NCBI GenBank assembly: GCA_000165345.1
Contig: CM000435.1
Location: forward strand, 448,001 to 512,000
Direction: 5' to 3'
Length of the DNA stretch: 64,000 nucleotides
Below are positions 47,621-55,107 of the stretch, piece after piece. A model generated the notes under the pieces. It saw nothing but the letters and a program-made list of their open reading frames with translations, ran no database searches and was not told where the DNA came from. How positions within the stretch are numbered: position 1 is the stretch's first letter; each line of letters opens with the position of its first letter. A program made the translations under genes and the position numbers.

Positions 47621-49093
47621 ATGCCCAGAGAATTAGTTACATTACAGATTGGGCAATGTGGGAATCAAATAGGCATGGAATTTTGGAAGCAGCTATGTAC
47701 TGAACATGGCCTGGATGCCAATGGAACAGTAATCAAAGACAGTGGCCCACTTGAAGATAGGAAAGATGTGTTTTTCTATCTTTCAGATGACAGCCATTAT
47801 GTTCCTCGAGCCTTACTATTTGATTTGGAGCCTAGAGTTCTAAATAGTATAAAATCAAGCGAATTCAAACACCTTTACAACCCAGAGAACTTCTTTATTG
47901 GAAAGGAGGGCGGCGGAGCTGGAAATAACTGGGGTTGTGGTTACGATACAGGGGAGGAGGTTTATGATGAAATACTGGATATGATTGATCGAGAAGTGGA
48001 AGGCTGCGAAAGTATGGAGGGGTTTGTTCTTTGCCACTCAATTGCAGGAGGTACCGGTAGTGGGATGGGGTCTTATATTTTAGAACTGTTAAATGAACAT
48101 TATCCAAGAAAACTAATTAAAACATTCTCAGTTTTTCCAATGCTTAATAATGAGAGCTCTGATGTAGTGGTTCAGCCATATAACTCTGTGTTAACTCTGA
48201 AGAGATTAGCTTTAAACGCGGATTGCGTTGTAGTTCTTGATAATACTGCCTTGAGTGGAATAGCTGAAGATAGATTGAATTTGACGAATCCAACATTTGC
48301 CCAAACTAATGCTTTAGTCAGTACAGTAATGGCTGCTTCGACTACAACACTTAGATATCCGGGATACATGCACAATAATTTGGTTTCATTATTCTCCACC
48401 TTAGTTCCAACTCCAAGATGCCATTTTCTCGTGACATCATACACTCCAATTACAATTAGTCAAAATATACAACAAAATGTTAGGAAAACAACAACTTTGG
48501 ATGTAATGAGACGACTTTTACAACCAAGTAATATTATGGTTAGCACAAATATGAGGAAGGGGACGTATATATCAATATTGAACATTATTAGAGGTGAGAC
48601 TGATCCAATGGAAGTACACAAAAGTTTGCAGAGAATCAGGGACAGGAATATGGTAAGATTTATTCAGTGGGGCCCTGCAGCAATTCAAGTAGCTCTTTCA
48701 AAGTATAACCCATATTCTACTCAACACAAGGTGAATGGTTTAATGATGGCCAATAATACGGCTATAGCCGGCTTATTCCAGAGATGCGTAGCTCAGTTTG
48801 ATAGATTAATGAAAAGAGGAGCCTTCCTTGACAACTATAAGAAACAATCAGTATTCCAAGATGGACTTGACGAGTTTGAAAATGCAAGAGAGGTATCAGA
48901 GATGTTAATTGAAGAATATAAGAGAGCAGAGAGAAACGACTATATGCTTGCAGGTTATAATACAGATTCTGGTTCAAAGAACTTACAACTTGATGGTTTA
49001 TCTAGACAAGAACCTCCTTTAAATGAATACTCTGATGACTTGTATAATTATTACTCCAAGGAGAACAACCCAAATTATAACACTTATTGCTAA
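47621..49093 (+). CDS. TUBG: gamma-tubulin
   Basis: [26 protein letters not shown]..., GGTGSGMGS loop, tubulin C-terminal domain. Confidence 0.9.
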
Positions 49094-49124: not shown

Positions 49125-49712
49125 TTAATTAGCACTAGTTTCGACTACCTTCCGCGTACTTCTCCTTTCTTTTCTTAGTTTTCTCTTTTCGGACCTCCTC
49201 ATGCATTTTGGGTATTCAATTTTAGGATTTACTACCAATGTCTTTATACTTGGGGGCAGAATTTGGATTTGAGGTGAGCTTATGCCATCCGCTTCTAAGT
49301 ATGGTATTTCAAACTTACTTTGATTGGATTTAATCAGCTGCACCAAACCAGACCTAACAGTTTCGTATGAATACTCGGGTTCTTTTGAACCAAGACTTTT
49401 TAGTCTCTCAGGTTCAATTTTCTCTCTTAATCCTACGCACGACATAGACAAACTTGATCCAGGAAGCCATTTAGCCATTTCATCATTATTAGCCAAGATG
49501 ACACATGGAACATTATTAATCTTGCATGCTGTCAAAATATGGTTCCCAATTCCGAGTGAAAAAAGCTTTTGAGTGAATATGACTCCAGCAATACTAACAA
49601 TATTTCGCAAAACTTCGTTGCACCCAATGAAAAAGAGCCCTCTAGACCATTTTATGTCTTTATTTCTAATATTTCTAACAACACTATTAGAAATGAGTTT
49701 GGATTTCACCAA
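49125..49712 (-). CDS. L7Ae/L30e-fold protein (divergent, Pop3/Rpp38- or Nhp2-like), probably with an unresolved 5' exon
   Basis: IGCNEVLRNI...LGIGNHILTACKINNVPCVILANND resembles the L7Ae-family core. ORF begins at GTG with no ATG before residue about 80. An ATG plus CAG|GTAAGT donor lie just upstream (about 49733-49766). Confidence 0.3.
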   Translation of the reverse strand: MVKSKLISNSVVRNIRNKDIKWSRGLFFIGCNEVLRNIVSIAGVIFTQKLFSLGIGNHILTACKINNVPCVILANNDEMAKWLPGSSLSMSCVGLREKIEPERLKSLGSKEPEYSYETVRSGLVQLIKSNQSKFEIPYLEADGISSPQIQILPPSIKTLVVNPKIEYPKCMRRSEKRKLRKERRSTRKVVETSAN

Positions 49713-49956
49713 TTAAGTGAATAAACTTACCTGTTAAATTTATTATAAAATAATTCATGGGCATCCTGAGTTAGTACTTGCCTAAAAATTAAAAGCGTTC
49801 GTCATTTTTCCCTTAAAAAACGCAGAATTGTAGGCTGAGACAAACTTACCACTTTGTTTTAGTATTTGTAAGTAAACTATGTCTCGTTCTTACAGAATTT
49901 TTTCCTCGGTCACTTCCTTTGCTGCTCGCATTCATTTGACCAAATCTCTCTTGCAT

Positions 49957-49995
49957 AACCCGCCCATGCATCGAGCGCCGTACTTGTGGCGGTAT
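49957..49995. promoter_or_regulatory. GC-rich element (CCCGCCCATGCATCGAGCGCCG...GTGGCGGTA) between the L7Ae-like gene and the Bub1-like kinase
   Basis: E2F-like GGCGG/GCGCC cores plus ATGCAT. Confidence 0.4.
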
Positions 49996-50202
49996 CTGTG
50001 TACAAATTTGTGGGCTGCAGGATCAGGAAATAAGTAACTTTTTAATAAGAAAAAAACTCAGAAAGTGCACTATAACAGTATTTGGAAAAAAGAGGGCTGG
50101 GAGTTGTTCAGCGTACATAGGAGAAGGTTTGAGATCAGCTTTGTATCTGAAAGGGCCTTCTTGGATAGGTTGCATTTGCTGAATTAATCTAAGCCTTGTA
50201 AG

Positions 50203-52755
50203 ATGAAAGGAAAATATAAGACATTTTTTAGTTTCAATGTTGATATTTTAAAAGATAATAAAACAAACCCATATGGTCCCTTTTCGAGAAACGATGAGTT
50301 ATCATTTGAGGAAATAGGGTACCTTAGATATCAATTAGACTATAATGAGTTTTTCAATACTAAGGTCGACGATAAGGAAAATCTAAGTAAGGTTTGCCAA
50401 AAGAGAAACTCTTGCAGTTCAACAAATAAAGATTCCTGGGTTAAAAAGGACCTTGATTCCAAGCGGATTTCTATATTAGAGCCTGTTACCAGTGAAAAAG
50501 TTGAATTAAATAAAGTTAGCGAGGTAATTGAATCGTTAAGCTTAAATTATATACAAAAAGATCAAGCTGTAATTTCTCCAATAGATTCGCAAGACAGTAA
50601 CTATGCTGCATTTAAATTGGGTAGCTGTGGTAATTTTGACAAAAGTGAGGAAGGGGCTTCTTTTCGCTCCGAAGATAATTACTATTTGGTCTCATTATTT
50701 GGTGTTCATAAATATAACTCAGAGAAAAATTTAACTTTTGAAAAATCCCTTTTTTCTATGGGATTGATTTCAACCATGAATCCTTATCACATAAGATCTC
50801 GCTCATTTAGGGAGTCAATCATGCTAAATCACATCAATGAAAGGTACAATAATTATTCAAAGCTCCAACTATGTGCTGTCCCATATATGCTTTACCAAAT
50901 CAATTTGGCTTCTGTAACTAACAAGGATGATGCTCCAAGGTTGAACCAAAGCTCGTTTAAAACTGGTTATTCTTTTACCTTGGAAATCAACCAAAGTTAT
51001 AAGCGGACCTTTATGCTTAAAAAATTAATTGGGTCAGGAGCAAATGCGAGTGTATTTTCTTCTGATGTTTGCACAATAGTGAACGAAAACCTGGTTAGCG
51101 TATTTTCATGCGCTGTTAAAGTTCAGCATAAAGACCTTGGGCTCAATGTTAGGGAAATTTATGGTGGGCTATCTCTTTATAAGAGAAATAAAAAACGCAT
51201 AACAGGTATTATTAAGAGGGCTTCTATAGAAATTGAGAAACCTTTGATTCTGAATGAGTACCAAACAAATAGTTTTAATGAAGATATTAAAAAAAGGTCG
51301 CCGCTAGTTCAAAAAACAGCCAGAAGCTCAATAAGTACAACTTATTTACCCGGAAGTAATATACCCTCTAGTAGGAATTCGTTAAACTCGTGTTTTGCCC
51401 CTATGGATACTGCAAATGAGAATCAATCGAATGAAAATATGGCATTTAGGACTTCAGTGAGTAGCCTTGCACATACTCCAAACATAAGCTTTTATGCAAG
51501 TTCAGGAAACACTCCAATAAATAATTTTAGAAAGAGCTCAGTATCTTCTGTAAAGACAGCTAGTAGAATTTCTGTTTCTTCACACTGTTCTTGCAACTAC
51601 GTTGACTCCGCTTCTGACGGAAGTTCTTTAACCAATCCAATTGAAATCGGAGAGGGGGTAACCATATTTTGTATAACCGAGCTATATATAGTTTCTCAAA
51701 GCTCATCAGGGATGATCCAGAACATCTTGACTAGGGAGATGATGAAGGGCAACCGAGAGCAAGAAAATAATCAAAAGAATGCGGAATTAAATGACGAACT
51801 TAGCGCTTCTGTGGGTATCTCAATACTACCTACATTTTTTGGAGCGCAAAGCTTACAAAACATACTAAACGAGTTTTACCTAAGGAATGGAATGACTATG
51901 GAAGAGCCTATCCTGTTATTTCTCACTTATCAATTTGCTGAAACCCTCCTTGCATTTAATGAAATGAAAATATTACATGGAGATATTAAGCCTGACAACA
52001 TATTACTATATCCAAATCCTAGTTTTTGTGAGGAAGGCTGGAATAATGATACAAACCTGTTTACTTGTCACCCACTGATTCCAGAGAGCCATGAATTACC
52101 GATATTCATGTCAATAATTGACTTTGGGAGAAGTCTAGATATAGGAGAAATTTACAAAAACACCTTCTTTGAAGGAAATTGCCATGCAAAAAGCTTTCTT
52201 CCTCCTGTAATGTTAGAAAATCTCCCCTGGCTTCACCACATTGATATCTTTGGCATTGCCTCCACAATACATTGCTTAATTACTGGAAGATATATGGAGC
52301 TCACAAAGTGGAGCGATGAGACCCTCAGGTGCTTGGAATATAAACACACTAAAAATAAACAAGATGAAAATGATATTCTTAAAGTTTATAACTATAGAAT
52401 TAAGAACCAGAGTTCATGTCTTAAAAGAAATTGGAGAATAGAGTTTTGGAGCAATTTCATGACTAATTGTATCAACTTTTGCCCCATTCTCGACTCTAGA
52501 TCTATACCAAATTCTGCTGAATTCCAGGGCTCTCTCTGTCATAATAATAAAACTGGGCTAGTTTCAGAACAGACAAAAGGTCTTCATGTTTCCCAATCAA
52601 TTGACGAGATCTCGCGAAACATTACTGTTTTCTTAAGAAAGGTTCAAGCGGACATCATCTCGATTTTCCAAGAAGACCAACAACTCAAAACTACTCTTTA
52701 TAAGCAGCTCTTGAAGATTAGGAAGCAGCTCCAAAATGTCTCCACCTCAAATTAG
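50203..52755 (+). CDS. protein kinase with Bub1/BubR1-type catalytic domain (C-terminal), long divergent N-terminal region
   Basis: GSGANASVF, AVKV, ILHGDIKPDNILL, IIDFGRSLD. NLPWLHHIDIFGIASTIHCLITGRYMEL parallels Bub1 [28 protein letters not shown]. Confidence 0.5.
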   Translation: MKGKYKTFFSFNVDILKDNKTNPYGPFSRNDELSFEEIGYLRYQLDYNEFFNTKVDDKENLSKVCQKRNSCSSTNKDSWVKKDLDSKRISILEPVTSEKVELNKVSEVIESLSLNYIQKDQAVISPIDSQDSNYAAFKLGSCGNFDKSEEGASFRSEDNYYLVSLFGVHKYNSEKNLTFEKSLFSMGLISTMNPYHIRSRSFRESIMLNHINERYNNYSKLQLCAVPYMLYQINLASVTNKDDAPRLNQSSFKTGYSFTLEINQSYKRTFMLKKLIGSGANASVFSSDVCTIVNENLVSVFSCAVKVQHKDLGLNVREIYGGLSLYKRNKKRITGIIKRASIEIEKPLILNEYQTNSFNEDIKKRSPLVQKTARSSISTTYLPGSNIPSSRNSLNSCFAPMDTANENQSNENMAFRTSVSSLAHTPNISFYASSGNTPINNFRKSSVSSVKTASRISVSSHCSCNYVDSASDGSSLTNPIEIGEGVTIFCITELYIVSQSSSGMIQNILTREMMKGNREQENNQKNAELNDELSASVGISILPTFFGAQSLQNILNEFYLRNGMTMEEPILLFLTYQFAETLLAFNEMKILHGDIKPDNILLYPNPSFCEEGWNNDTNLFTCHPLIPESHELPIFMSIIDFGRSLDIGEIYKNTFFEGNCHAKSFLPPVMLENLPWLHHIDIFGIASTIHCLITGRYMELTKWSDETLRCLEYKHTKNKQDENDILKVYNYRIKNQSSCLKRNWRIEFWSNFMTNCINFCPILDSRSIPNSAEFQGSLCHNNKTGLVSEQTKGLHVSQSIDEISRNITVFLRKVQADIISIFQEDQQLKTTLYKQLLKIRKQLQNVSTSN

Positions 52756-52999: not shown

Positions 53000-55107
53000 A
53001 TGCTAGGAGCCCAACAACAGAAAAGAATAGAGTCCATTCGACAGGAGTTGGACTACTGTCTGCATAAAATGAATGATGTTGATAGTGTTGGAAGAGGTAG
53101 GTTGTAATTTTTTTCAAGTAATTTTTATATGTACTAACTTGTAATCCGAACACAATTGAAGGGCTCGAAGACCTTAAGATTTTGGTCGCAAGAATGGAAC
53201 TGGGGGACATCCATGGAGTACTCTCAAGCGGCCTCTTGGACTCTGATAAGATGAGACCAATGGGCAGGAGGTTCAGCGTCAAAGTAGTTGACTATATTGT
53301 TGAGCGCTTTGGAACGGAACGCACTCTGCCCTACATCTCTTCAATAATGGCATTCTTAATTCAAGGATGCAAAGATATGGAAGTGCATGTCCAAAATTCA
53401 GCAGTCTCAACTATAGGATTAATTGCCAGCTCATTTCTTGCCGAAGAGATTTTTCAACTTAATCAGGATATTGTAGACAATTTCTTTGATCCATTATTTC
53501 AATTCTCAAAAAAGGAAAGCAATCCAACAATTCAAATTAGTTCGATTGCAGCAATTAGTTCTGCGATAGATGGGATGAGTACAAACCTAGTAATTATGAA
53601 TCTTAATAAACTTATGGGAAACTTGGTTCCAATTATGATGAATCCTAATACTTCAGAGGCATGTAGAGCTGTAGTAATTGACACTTTGAGAAAGTTGGTT
53701 GTTCTTGTCTGGACTTTTCTACAAGAAACATCTTTTGGAAGCTCTCCAGGTATGTATGATCTTAAGCAAAAGCAAAATATGGACCCAGAATTGAATGTAT
53801 GCGCAGAAGGTCTTGAATTAAAACAAGTTGAGGGTATTAACGATCATTTGATCCTCCCTATTACTTGGAAACAAATCAGCAGTATTTTTAATGGGATACT
53901 TAAAGAATTACACCCTAACTATACTACAAATAGTAAGAATACCAACGTTAGAAGTGCATCTCTCTCTCTTCTAACTGAAATCATGGTTTGTTGCTTTGTT
54001 GCACAAGCGGGAGCTCTCTTGGCTGCGCACAACAGCAATATCCCTTTGCAAAAACCCATTGATGGAATTAAAACTTATGCAGAAGTCATAATTAATGTAG
54101 TAAACCTTGGAGCTAAAGATAAGTCGCCCAAAGTTAGAGAAGTTGCTCAATATTGTATTAAAAGGCTTCAAGAGGCTAATGAAGCTTACATTCCTGATGG
54201 TAGCGAAATGATGAGTTTTACTCAAAACATACAAATAATCGAAAAGGAACAGCTCAACAACCAAAATATTTCTAAGAGTTCTAAATCCCGAAATAGAATT
54301 ATGAATGAAAATTTCTTTAAAAATGCAACCGATGAGATTTTAGTTAAGCATGTTTCGCCTCCCTCAAGCTGGAGACAAATACAACGCAACGCTATAGAAG
54401 ACAAAGACCAACAGACTAAGTTAGATATGACAACAAAGAGTAGTGAGGAAGAACAAGTTGATAAAGAAGACCAATACCCTGCTTCAGTTTCTAGTATTAC
54501 GGAAACTCAGTCAGTCCATAGTAATAGTAACAGTTTCGTGGGTGCGAACGACTTACTTCCTCAAGATAATACAAGCAATACTCAAAATTACCCTCCTCTG
54601 CATCTTACTGAGGCTGTTAACCAAAATCTATTCTTGCCAGGCTCTAAATATTCTGCAATATCTTCAAATATAAACGCTCCTCTTCCGTCTCCCCTTTATA
54701 TCGTCACTCAACCTCCAGTCATTCAAGGCAATGTGATGAACCATTCAGGTATTAATCAAGAATCAAGTGAAAAACAATTAATTCTCGAAAAGAAGGTAGA
54801 AGAACTAAGTAAAGAAGTAAAAAGACTTATTACAAGACAAAACGAACTGGAAAATGTCGCCCATGTATTAAAGATGGTTGCGATACATAGAGTGGACTCC
54901 CTGGAAGAGAAGATAAAAGGCTTGTCAGATTCCCTTAGGGAGACTAAAAAAGAAGTAAGGCTAGAAATGGACGAAATCCAGAATGAAAAGGCAACCTTGG
55001 AAGAGGACTTAAGACATTTGTCTGTAAATGAGAGAAAGGAGATTATTGGAGATTTTCGCAGGCAATTATATAACAAGGCAAAACAAATAGTAGTTGAAAA
55101 CAAGTAG
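53000..55107 (+). CDS. HEAT/ARM-repeat protein with C-terminal coiled coil. join(53000..53096, 53162..55107)
   Basis: Exon 1 MLGAQQQKRIESIRQELDYCLHKMNDVDSVGR, donor G|GTAGGT, 65-nt intron ending TTGAAG, in frame with ORF-track 53182..55107. Confidence 0.5.

Follow-up and report, generated by a model that had tools for sequence, protein, structure and literature searches.

The question raised by this locus is whether Cryptosporidium parvum possesses a genuine Bub1 kinase, and what such an enzyme may do when the N-terminal domain typical of the family is missing. The locus lies in a stretch of 64,000 nucleotides (the window) from assembly GCA_000165345.1, contig CM000435.1, positions 448,001 to 512,000 of the forward strand, and all coordinates given below are those of the window. 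In the open reading frame (ORF) list of the window, the ORF at 50203..52755 of the plus strand runs uninterrupted from ATG to TAG, with exactly the limits assigned to it in the initial annotation. The encoded protein has 100% identity with the 'Bub1p related protein kinase' deposited for C. parvum Iowa II (UniProt Q5CYK3 = cgd7_2000). Full-length orthologues are present in every Cryptosporidium species sampled, with identities ranging from 83% to ~50%, and in addition in the more distant C. muris, C. andersoni and C. serpentis.

50203..52755, plus strand: whole coding sequence, without introns, of the Bub1 orthologue of C. parvum (cgd7_2000 / Q5CYK3), 850 codons and a stop, as evident from deposited-protein identity and syntenic orthologues.

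The gene and its assignment to Bub1 are already in the databases and are not a discovery. The C. hominis copy, a member of the same 90% cluster, carries the name 'mitotic checkpoint control protein kinase BUB1', and in Supplementary Data 1 of Zeeshan et al. (2023) the entry for Bub1 of C. parvum is Q5CYK3 = cgd7_2000 (PMC10499817). A kinome paper of 2011 assigned cgd7_2000 to 'OPK clade 2' and credited it with 'no known orthologues outside Cryptosporidium' and a '436-residue N-terminal extension' (PMC3227725). The initial annotation, made from the sequence alone, considered a Bub1-like kinase at this position worth confirming; the identity is confirmed by the comparisons described below, and it is one that had already been deposited and listed.

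The kinase is of the Bub1 type by three independent routes of sequence comparison. A phmmer search against all PDB chains retrieves six distinct BUB1 sequences at E-values of 2.4e-14 to 1e-11 (human 4QPM, 6F7B, 4R8Q, 5DMZ and 9RJ2; 6JKK), the alignment to BUB1 covering residues 550-702, whereas the next families (IKK, CLK3 and Aurora) appear only at E >= 0.17 and no haspin chain is found among the matches at E <= 1. The second route is a profile of eight Cryptosporidium orthologues, which yields 525 matches at E <= 1e-3 in a search of 1.84 billion representative proteins, centred on the C-lobe (residues 550-760). The best matches outside the genus belong to Lankesteria (a gregarine), Vitrella and Chromera (both chromerids, the Chromera protein being named 'BUB1 N-terminal domain-containing protein'), the oomycete Pythium, a liverwort BUB1 and Gregarina. 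Pfam detects Mad3_BUB1_I in 25 of the 41 longest top matches, with a best E-value of 7.9e-45, and Mad3_BUB1_I_2 in 7 of the 41.

The third route concerns the N-lobe. An 11-sequence Cryptosporidium profile, compared by hhalign to 37 MadBub N-lobes, aligns to them over residues 244-331 with a probability of 96.3% (E 1.6e-9), with the Gly-loop GSGANASVF, K306 (AVKVQ) and the alphaC glutamate E318 in register. A HMMER profile of residues 175-335 did not reach BUB1 in the PDB, its sole match being a chance one to nsp16, and hence a profile-profile comparison was needed to reveal the N-lobe relationship. The Pfam Pkinase profile recognizes the C-lobe alone (residues 549-698, E 1.2e-8, profile positions 83-196). 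The parts of the kinase are as follows.

50932..51195, plus strand: first part of the N-lobe, residues 244-331, with GSGANASVF (277-285), K306 and E318; placed by hhalign, key residues invariant.
51196..51627, plus strand: Ser/Asn/Thr-rich insert of 144 residues (332-475) between alphaC and beta4; from composition and alignment, boundaries inferred.
51628..51849, plus strand: second part of the N-lobe, residues 476-549, with putative beta4, an insert of ~33 residues between beta4 and beta5, and putative beta5/hinge; FCITEL and SVGISILPT blocks conserved.
51850..52482, plus strand: C-lobe, residues 550-760, with HGDIKPDN, an insert of ~30 residues (604-633), DFG (640-642), a Bub1-type activation/P+1 segment and PWLHHIDIFG; from phmmer and Pfam.
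52483..52752, plus strand: C-terminal extension, residues 761-850, with a conserved end segment (800-840) in which I800 to L837 and R840 are conserved.

The strings on which the kinase was first recognized are present, HGDIKPDN at residues 592-599 (nucleotides 51976-51999) and DFGRSLD from residue 640 (nucleotide 52120). The third of them, read as PW..IDIFG, is also found (PWLHHIDIFGIASTIHCLITGRYM, residues 675-698), with three residues after PW, as in human BUB1, instead of the two first given. All eight aligned species share K306, E318, H592-G-D594, K596, N599, D640 and G642, and F641 is replaced by Leu in two of the eight, as in the human DLG. Since the catalytic residues are invariant in eight species, cgd7_2000 is predicted to be an active kinase.

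The N-lobe is split, and the part of the protein that lies outside the kinase is accordingly shorter than the '550-aa N-terminal region' of the initial annotation, ~300 of those residues being kinase N-lobe and lineage-specific inserts. The true non-kinase N-terminus comprises ~190-245 residues, the N-lobe starting near residues 244-277. Profile matches to other Bub1 kinases start at about residues 535-550 of cgd7_2000. We infer from the sequence that residues 476-549 hold strands beta4 and beta5. The 144-residue insert consists of Ser, Thr and Asn to the extent of 39%, and its invariant fraction is 0.15. Inside it lies an invariant Ser-rich motif, TARSSISTTYLPGSNIPSSRNSLNS (residues 372-396, nucleotides 51316-51390), with an invariant fraction of 0.64; it may serve for docking or for phospho-regulation, and nothing comparable is seen in other Bub1 kinases.

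In Bub1 proteins, the tetratricopeptide repeat (TPR) domain Mad3_BUB1_I binds Knl1, the CM1 motif (P-x-T-x-x-T-K-x-A...F) binds Mad1, the ABBA motif binds Cdc20 and the GLEBS motif binds Bub3. Lack of the Mad3/TPR N-terminus, which had been noted by eye, is borne out by profile methods. With a threshold of E <= 10, Pfam recognizes no Mad3_BUB1_I in C. parvum, nor does it in C. muris with E <= 0.1, and an 11-species profile of the N-terminus gives only 0.4% by hhalign against a 28-sequence MadBub TPR profile. The Vitrella homologue, a non-circular positive control that is not part of the TPR profile, scores 92.3% (E 5.6e-7), and two gregarine sequences score below 1% each. An overlooked upstream exon coding for the TPR would find no space, because only ~267 bp separate the kinase ATG from the inferred ATG of the divergent neighbour. 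A hidden Markov model (HMM) of CM1, derived from 47 MadBub seeds, does not exceed 0.6 bits, its matches being confined to unrelated C-terminal sites, and no regular-expression match to ABBA exists in the first 260 residues of any of the 11 orthologues. Judged from its sequence, cgd7_2000 is very probably a Bub1 orthologue with an active kinase and no TPR.

The invariant fraction of residues 1-192 is 0.18 as compared to 0.35 for the whole protein, and five short conserved islands stand out against this background. The features ahead of the N-lobe, including putative binding sites for a WD40 propeller and for a co-activator of the anaphase-promoting complex or cyclosome (APC/C), are as follows.

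50215..50250, plus strand: N-terminal island YKTFFSFNVDIL, residues 5-16; Y5, F8-F11 and L16 invariant, [Y/F]FSFN also in C. muris.
50293..50322, plus strand: GLEBS-type core DELSFEEIGY, residues 31-40, putative Bub3/Rae1-family WD40-binding motif; from invariance, HMM and regular expression.
50374..50382, plus strand: KEN box, residues 58-60, putative APC/C co-activator recognition motif; the sole KEN in the protein, invariant in 8 species.
50464..50532, plus strand: islands RISILE (residues 88-93) and EVIE (residues 107-110); R88, S90, L92, E93, E107, I109 and E110 invariant.
50779..50829, plus strand: conserved block NPYHIRSRSFRESIMLN (NPYH.RSRSFRESIML), residues 193-209, invariant fraction 0.88; candidate N-terminal kinase extension (unproven).

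The initial annotation saw no recognizable GLEBS pattern in this region, a statement that is overturned here. ELSFEEI (residues 32-38) fits the 7-residue core E-[FMIL]-[SC]-F-E-E-[LIV] common to 14 genuine MadBub GLEBS segments, and E32, S34, F35, E36, E37 and Y40 are invariant in the 8-species alignment. The core expression occurs once in the 128,000 six-frame residues of the 64-kb window, namely at this site, and it arises in 26 of 200,000 shuffles of the protein, corresponding to a chance of ~1.3e-4 per protein. An HMM built from the 14 MadBub segments (13 of them from the set of long matches) matches every Cryptosporidium orthologue, the aligned position never varying. For the C. muris clade it scores 13.7 bits (E 2e-6) over the 16-residue DELSFEELRCMHYKAK, in which the canonical Arg and Tyr-Lys are retained. 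Bub3 and Rae1 are both GLEBS-binding propellers. Functional binding of Bub3 is somewhat more likely than not. The island YKTFFSFNVDIL, which reads TPYFSFNASSL in C. muris and lies outside the coverage of the GLEBS HMM, is possibly the N-terminal half of an extended GLEBS. The KEN tripeptide is kept in the C. muris clade as NKEN; a role as a degron is conceivable, though slightly less likely than not. A HMMER profile of the first 130 residues finds zero matches in the PDB, a search that is uninformative for short motifs.

The other kinetochore and checkpoint parts on record set the frame in which such a kinase would act. In Dataset EV1 of van Hooff et al. (2017), C. parvum is represented under Bub3, BugZ, Shugoshin, Cdh1, Aurora, Incenp, Rod/ZW10/Zwilch and TRIP13, and it has no entry in the complete sets of MadBub, Mad1, Mad2, Mps1, Cdc20, Knl1 and Plk (PMC5579357); as the MadBub set has no entry for the species, that survey missed cgd7_2000. 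In the table of Zeeshan et al., Mps1 and Polo are marked '-' for C. parvum and Bub1 is marked '-' for Plasmodium and Toxoplasma, and Bub1, Mps1 and Polo are reported to have been lost in the ancestor of the latter two (PMC10499817). No second MadBub gene is on record for Cryptosporidium, the genome not having been searched for one here.

We consider it likely that cgd7_2000 is a streamlined, Bub3-tethered active Bub1 devoted to centromere signalling rather than to Mad1/Mad2 scaffolding. The GLEBS motif would tether the kinase to the Bub3-type WD40 propeller of C. parvum and thereby bring it to kinetochores or centromeres. By analogy with what is established for Bub1, the active enzyme would next phosphorylate the C-terminal tail of H2A (T120-equivalent), a mark expected to recruit Shugoshin and Aurora/INCENP. 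The KEN box may in turn make cgd7_2000 a client of APC/C-Cdh1, removed at mitotic exit. A scaffold role in assembly of the mitotic checkpoint complex (MCC) is unlikely, because the elements docking Knl1, Mad1 and Cdc20 are lacking, and Mad1, Mad2, Mps1, Cdc20 and Knl1 themselves were not found in C. parvum by van Hooff et al.

Several observations weigh against this reading. The GLEBS of C. parvum itself scores a weak 4.3 bits, the Arg-Ala that follows EE[IL] is changed to Gly/Tyr-Tyr in the intestinal (C. parvum) clade, and no N-terminal half of a canonical GLEBS can be recognized in cgd7_2000. The gregarine and chromerid relatives contain no GLEBS-like core, though some of these may be incomplete transcript models. 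The C. parvum 'Bub3' CPAI001728 (PMC5579357) has its best PDB matches in Rae1 ('mRNA export factor', E ~1e-12), and no Bub3 chain occurs among its 60 best PDB matches; the identity of CPAI001728 as Bub3 is not independently confirmed, and the WD40 partner of cgd7_2000 may be Rae1-like. A KEN tripeptide is expected by chance 0.35 times per protein, and its flank is not KEN1-like, as the score of the real sequence is equalled or surpassed by 357 of 2,000 KEN-planted shuffles. A likeness of KENLSKVCQKR to the KEN1 box of BubR1 (KENVQPLRQGR) was rejected on that ground.

The remaining points concern the block NPYHIRSRSFRESIMLN and the structure models. The block lies 84 residues ahead of the Gly-loop, and 39 [ND]P[FWY] motifs in 51 MadBub extension segments lie 49-86 residues ahead. 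The agreement with MadBub extensions is positional only ([ND]P[FWY]), the hhalign value of 0.2% being equal to that of the reversed control, and the NPY block is not demonstrable as a Bub1 N-terminal kinase extension. AlphaFold2 models made with 8-sequence alignments have a mean predicted local distance difference test score of 29 for the full protein and 43 for residues 476-850, both unusable; residues 800-840 are drawn as helical in these low-confidence models.

The least improbable of the rival explanations is that cgd7_2000 is a Bub1-derived, genus-specific 'orphan' kinase no longer acting at kinetochores, its N-terminal motifs being chance or repurposed, for example for a Rae1/Gle2-type propeller at nuclear pores. 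This is consistent with the kinome placement of 2011 (PMC3227725), with Rae1 as the best PDB match of the candidate WD40 partner, with the loss of TPR, CM1 and ABBA altogether, with the large lineage-specific inserts and with the low GLEBS score of C. parvum. That classification is, however, superseded by the profile results and by the gregarine and chromerid orthologues, and the GLEBS core is invariant amid variable surroundings and canonical in C. muris. Shugoshin, the downstream reader of Bub1 activity, is moreover reported in C. parvum (PMC5579357), and we regard the orphan explanation as improbable.

A combination of GLEBS with an invariant KEN near the N-terminus recalls the elements used by Mad3 and BubR1, and it could be argued from it that cgd7_2000 is a pseudosubstrate inhibitor of the APC/C with a merely structural kinase domain, as in vertebrate BubR1. 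All the catalytic residues are intact and invariant, unlike those of a pseudokinase, and neither a TPR nor a second KEN, ABBA or D-box cassette accompanies the KEN, whose flank departs from KEN1. The MCC partners Mad2 and Cdc20 have no C. parvum entry either (PMC5579357), which leaves a BubR1-like inhibitor very improbable. A kinase unrelated to Bub1, haspin-like or apicomplexan-specific and convergent in a few motifs, might be suspected from the partial generic Pkinase match and from the failure of the N-lobe profile alone to find BUB1 in the PDB by HMMER, but it is effectively refuted, as the only significant PDB matches are BUB1 chains without any haspin at E <= 1, most of the nearest proteins are MadBub proteins that carry a Mad3/BUB1 domain (the sources name these relatives BUB1), and the N-lobe aligns to MadBub N-lobes with 96% probability. 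The haspin or apicomplexan-specific placement that the initial annotation set against Bub1 did not occur.

The streamlined, Bub3-tethered Bub1 thus remains preferred, and a more far-reaching version of it can tentatively be put forward, which we hold to be rather unlikely. It describes cgd7_2000 as a natural 'separation-of-function' Bub1 that maintains a minimal Bub3-Bub1-(H2A-P)-Shugoshin/Aurora centromere axis with GLEBS, KEN and kinase, in an organism for which Mad1, Mad2, Mps1, Cdc20 and Knl1 have not been found, the conserved phospho-acceptor-rich insert (TARSSIST...SSRNS) of the N-lobe serving as a new regulatory input. If true, centromere signalling by Bub1 would be older or more indispensable than checkpoint scaffolding in this lineage, and the kinetochore receptor would be something other than Knl1 MELT repeats read in the TPR-assisted mode.

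The added value of the present analysis is modest and consists in a map of the architecture, which records the loss of TPR, CM1 and ABBA, the retention of GLEBS core, KEN and an intact catalytic centre, and an interrupted N-lobe. Since loss of Bub1 is reported for Plasmodium and Toxoplasma, it is in Cryptosporidium and the gregarines that one can ask what role Bub1 plays in an apicomplexan having hardly any other checkpoint parts. By its inserts and altered N-lobe, cgd7_2000 is also divergent enough from human BUB1 to be considered as a selective target.

Two conserved non-coding features lie in the divergent promoter of ~267 bp upstream of the kinase ATG.

49959..49992 (-244 to -211 from the ATG), no strand assigned: GC-rich cluster; from a five-species alignment.
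50003..50047, no strand assigned: near-invariant non-coding block (core TGTGGGCTGCAGGATCAGGAAATAAGTAAC, 50009-50038) lying downstream of the cluster and ahead of the kinase ATG; C. felis, C. canis and C. ubiquitum differ from it by 0-2 mismatches.

The cluster is composed of CCCGCC (GGCGGG on the minus strand, 49959-49964) abutting ATGCAT, followed by AGCGCC (49974-49979; GGCGCC in C. canis) and TGGCGG, and its elements are conserved in four to five species. The published E2F-like cores of C. parvum are [C/G]GCGC[G/C] and GGCGGG, the ApiAP2 core is TGCAT, and the E2F-like motif is over-represented upstream of genes genome-wide (PMC3734150). By its sequence the cluster at 49959-49992 matches the E2F/DP-type promoter element of C. 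parvum. Both cores are enriched about four-fold in the window, SGCGCS with 8 occurrences as compared to 1.9 expected (7 of the 8 being the palindrome GGCGCC) and GGCGGG with 9 as compared to 2.3, numbers that none of 100 shuffles reached for either; the density of E2F-like cores is about one site per two genes. The E2F-like cluster placed initially 210-250 nucleotides upstream is therefore real and conserved, but it is part of a bidirectional promoter and is not assignable to the kinase gene alone, because it lies only ~24-57 nucleotides from the inferred ATG of the divergent neighbour.

In C. felis, C. canis and C. ubiquitum the TGTGGGCTGCAGGATCAGGAAATAAGTAAC block is conserved to a higher degree than the neighbouring coding sequence. 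It is degraded in C. ryanae, missing from C. muris and unique in the window, and it is a putative promoter or 5' untranslated region (UTR) element. A non-coding RNA was rejected on the basis of Rfam, which gave only a sub-threshold chance match, and an upstream coding exon was rejected because interspecies indels appear to break any frame and the block is absent in C. muris. An intron in the 5' UTR is possible, given AA|GTAAC in the block and AG immediately before the kinase ATG.

The divergent neighbour (49125-49935, minus strand) is listed in the window only as a TTG-start ORF of 195 residues (49125-49712), and its orthologous models have 164-230 residues and extend further upstream. Its ATG (~49935) is inferred from the C. 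ubiquitum gene model, and the implied first exon in C. parvum, ATGAATGCGAGC, with its ATG at 49935-49933 and a GTAAGA donor, requires at least one intron. Pfam finds no match in the C. parvum protein encoded by the neighbour; a weak match of the C. muris orthologue to Ribosomal_L7Ae suggests an RNA-binding protein of the L7Ae fold. Two microtubule-related genes flank the kinase, gamma-tubulin upstream (47621-49093, plus strand; Tubulin E 3e-61) and a TORTIFOLIA1-like HEAT-repeat gene downstream (53182-55107, plus strand; TOR1L1_N E 2.6e-12). The listed ORF of the latter begins at TTG and its orthologues have ~680 residues, so that its true start is probably upstream or spliced. The order of gamma-tubulin, small minus-strand gene, kinase and HEAT protein is kept in six Cryptosporidium species.

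As compared to human BUB1 and the budding-yeast type of Bub1 (4QPM, 6F7B, 4R8Q, 5DMZ; 6JKK), cgd7_2000 has an identical HGDIKPDN, and D(F/L)G-x-S-(L/I)-D, the activation/P+1 segment and PW-xxx-ID-x-FG-x-A-x-T-xx-C-xxx-G-x-YM are in register with the PDB BUB1 sequences. The Gly-loop G-x-GA-x-A-x-V(F/Y), A-x-K-V/I-Q and the alphaC E-x-Y are common to it and the MadBub profile, as is the GLEBS core E-(F/L)-S-F-E-E-(L/I) to it and the human and yeast-type Bub1. It differs from these proteins in the absence of TPR, CM1 and ABBA, in the location of GLEBS at the extreme N-terminus ahead of a single KEN, and in the extra inserts of 144 residues (alphaC-beta4), ~33 residues (beta4-beta5) and ~30 residues (pre-DFG). 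BubR1 and Mad3 depend on a KEN1-TPR-ABBA/KEN2 cassette, and their kinase is either a pseudokinase or missing. GLEBS and KEN are ancestral element types common to them and cgd7_2000, in which the cassette is absent and the kinase is, by sequence, catalytically intact.

The closest kinase-domain relatives outside the genus are those of Lankesteria, Gregarina niphandrodes (XP_011131617.1), Vitrella (CEM28193.1) and Chromera (Cvel_3348). The TPR is clear in Chromera (Mad3_BUB1_I E 6e-17), vestigial in Vitrella (Pfam E 0.004) and undetectable in gregarines and Cryptosporidium, and among the gregarine and chromerid relatives a KEN occurs only in Chromera (residue 41), ahead of its TPR. The Vitrella and Chromera homologues miss the relaxed catalytic-loop pattern H-x-D-[ILVM]-K-[PA]-x-N, yet both can be aligned with the C-lobe of the Cryptosporidium kinase; either degeneration (pseudokinase-like) or mere divergence may be the reason. 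Descent of cgd7_2000 would be vertical, from the alveolate ancestor.

Absence of the TPR is also seen elsewhere, as 29 of the 44 long Bub1-type matches have a TPR and 15 are without it. Such TPR-less Bub1 kinases include those of Balamuthia mandrillaris ('BUB1', KAL6072987.1), Calcarisporiella thermophila (XP_069247040.1) and Acanthamoeba castellanii (XP_004334898.1), none of which has the large N-lobe insert of Cryptosporidium; the Acanthamoeba kinase has CM1 only. In Balamuthia and Calcarisporiella the GLEBS lies within the first 50 residues with a KEN downstream, the same order as in Cryptosporidium, but their GLEBS is full-length and scores 49-54 bits as compared to 4-14 bits, and the distance from KEN to GLEBS core is ~170-180 residues as compared to ~20. 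The GLEBS-first, TPR-less layout of the Cryptosporidium kinase is unusual, not unique, and is met with again in these two Bub1-type kinases.

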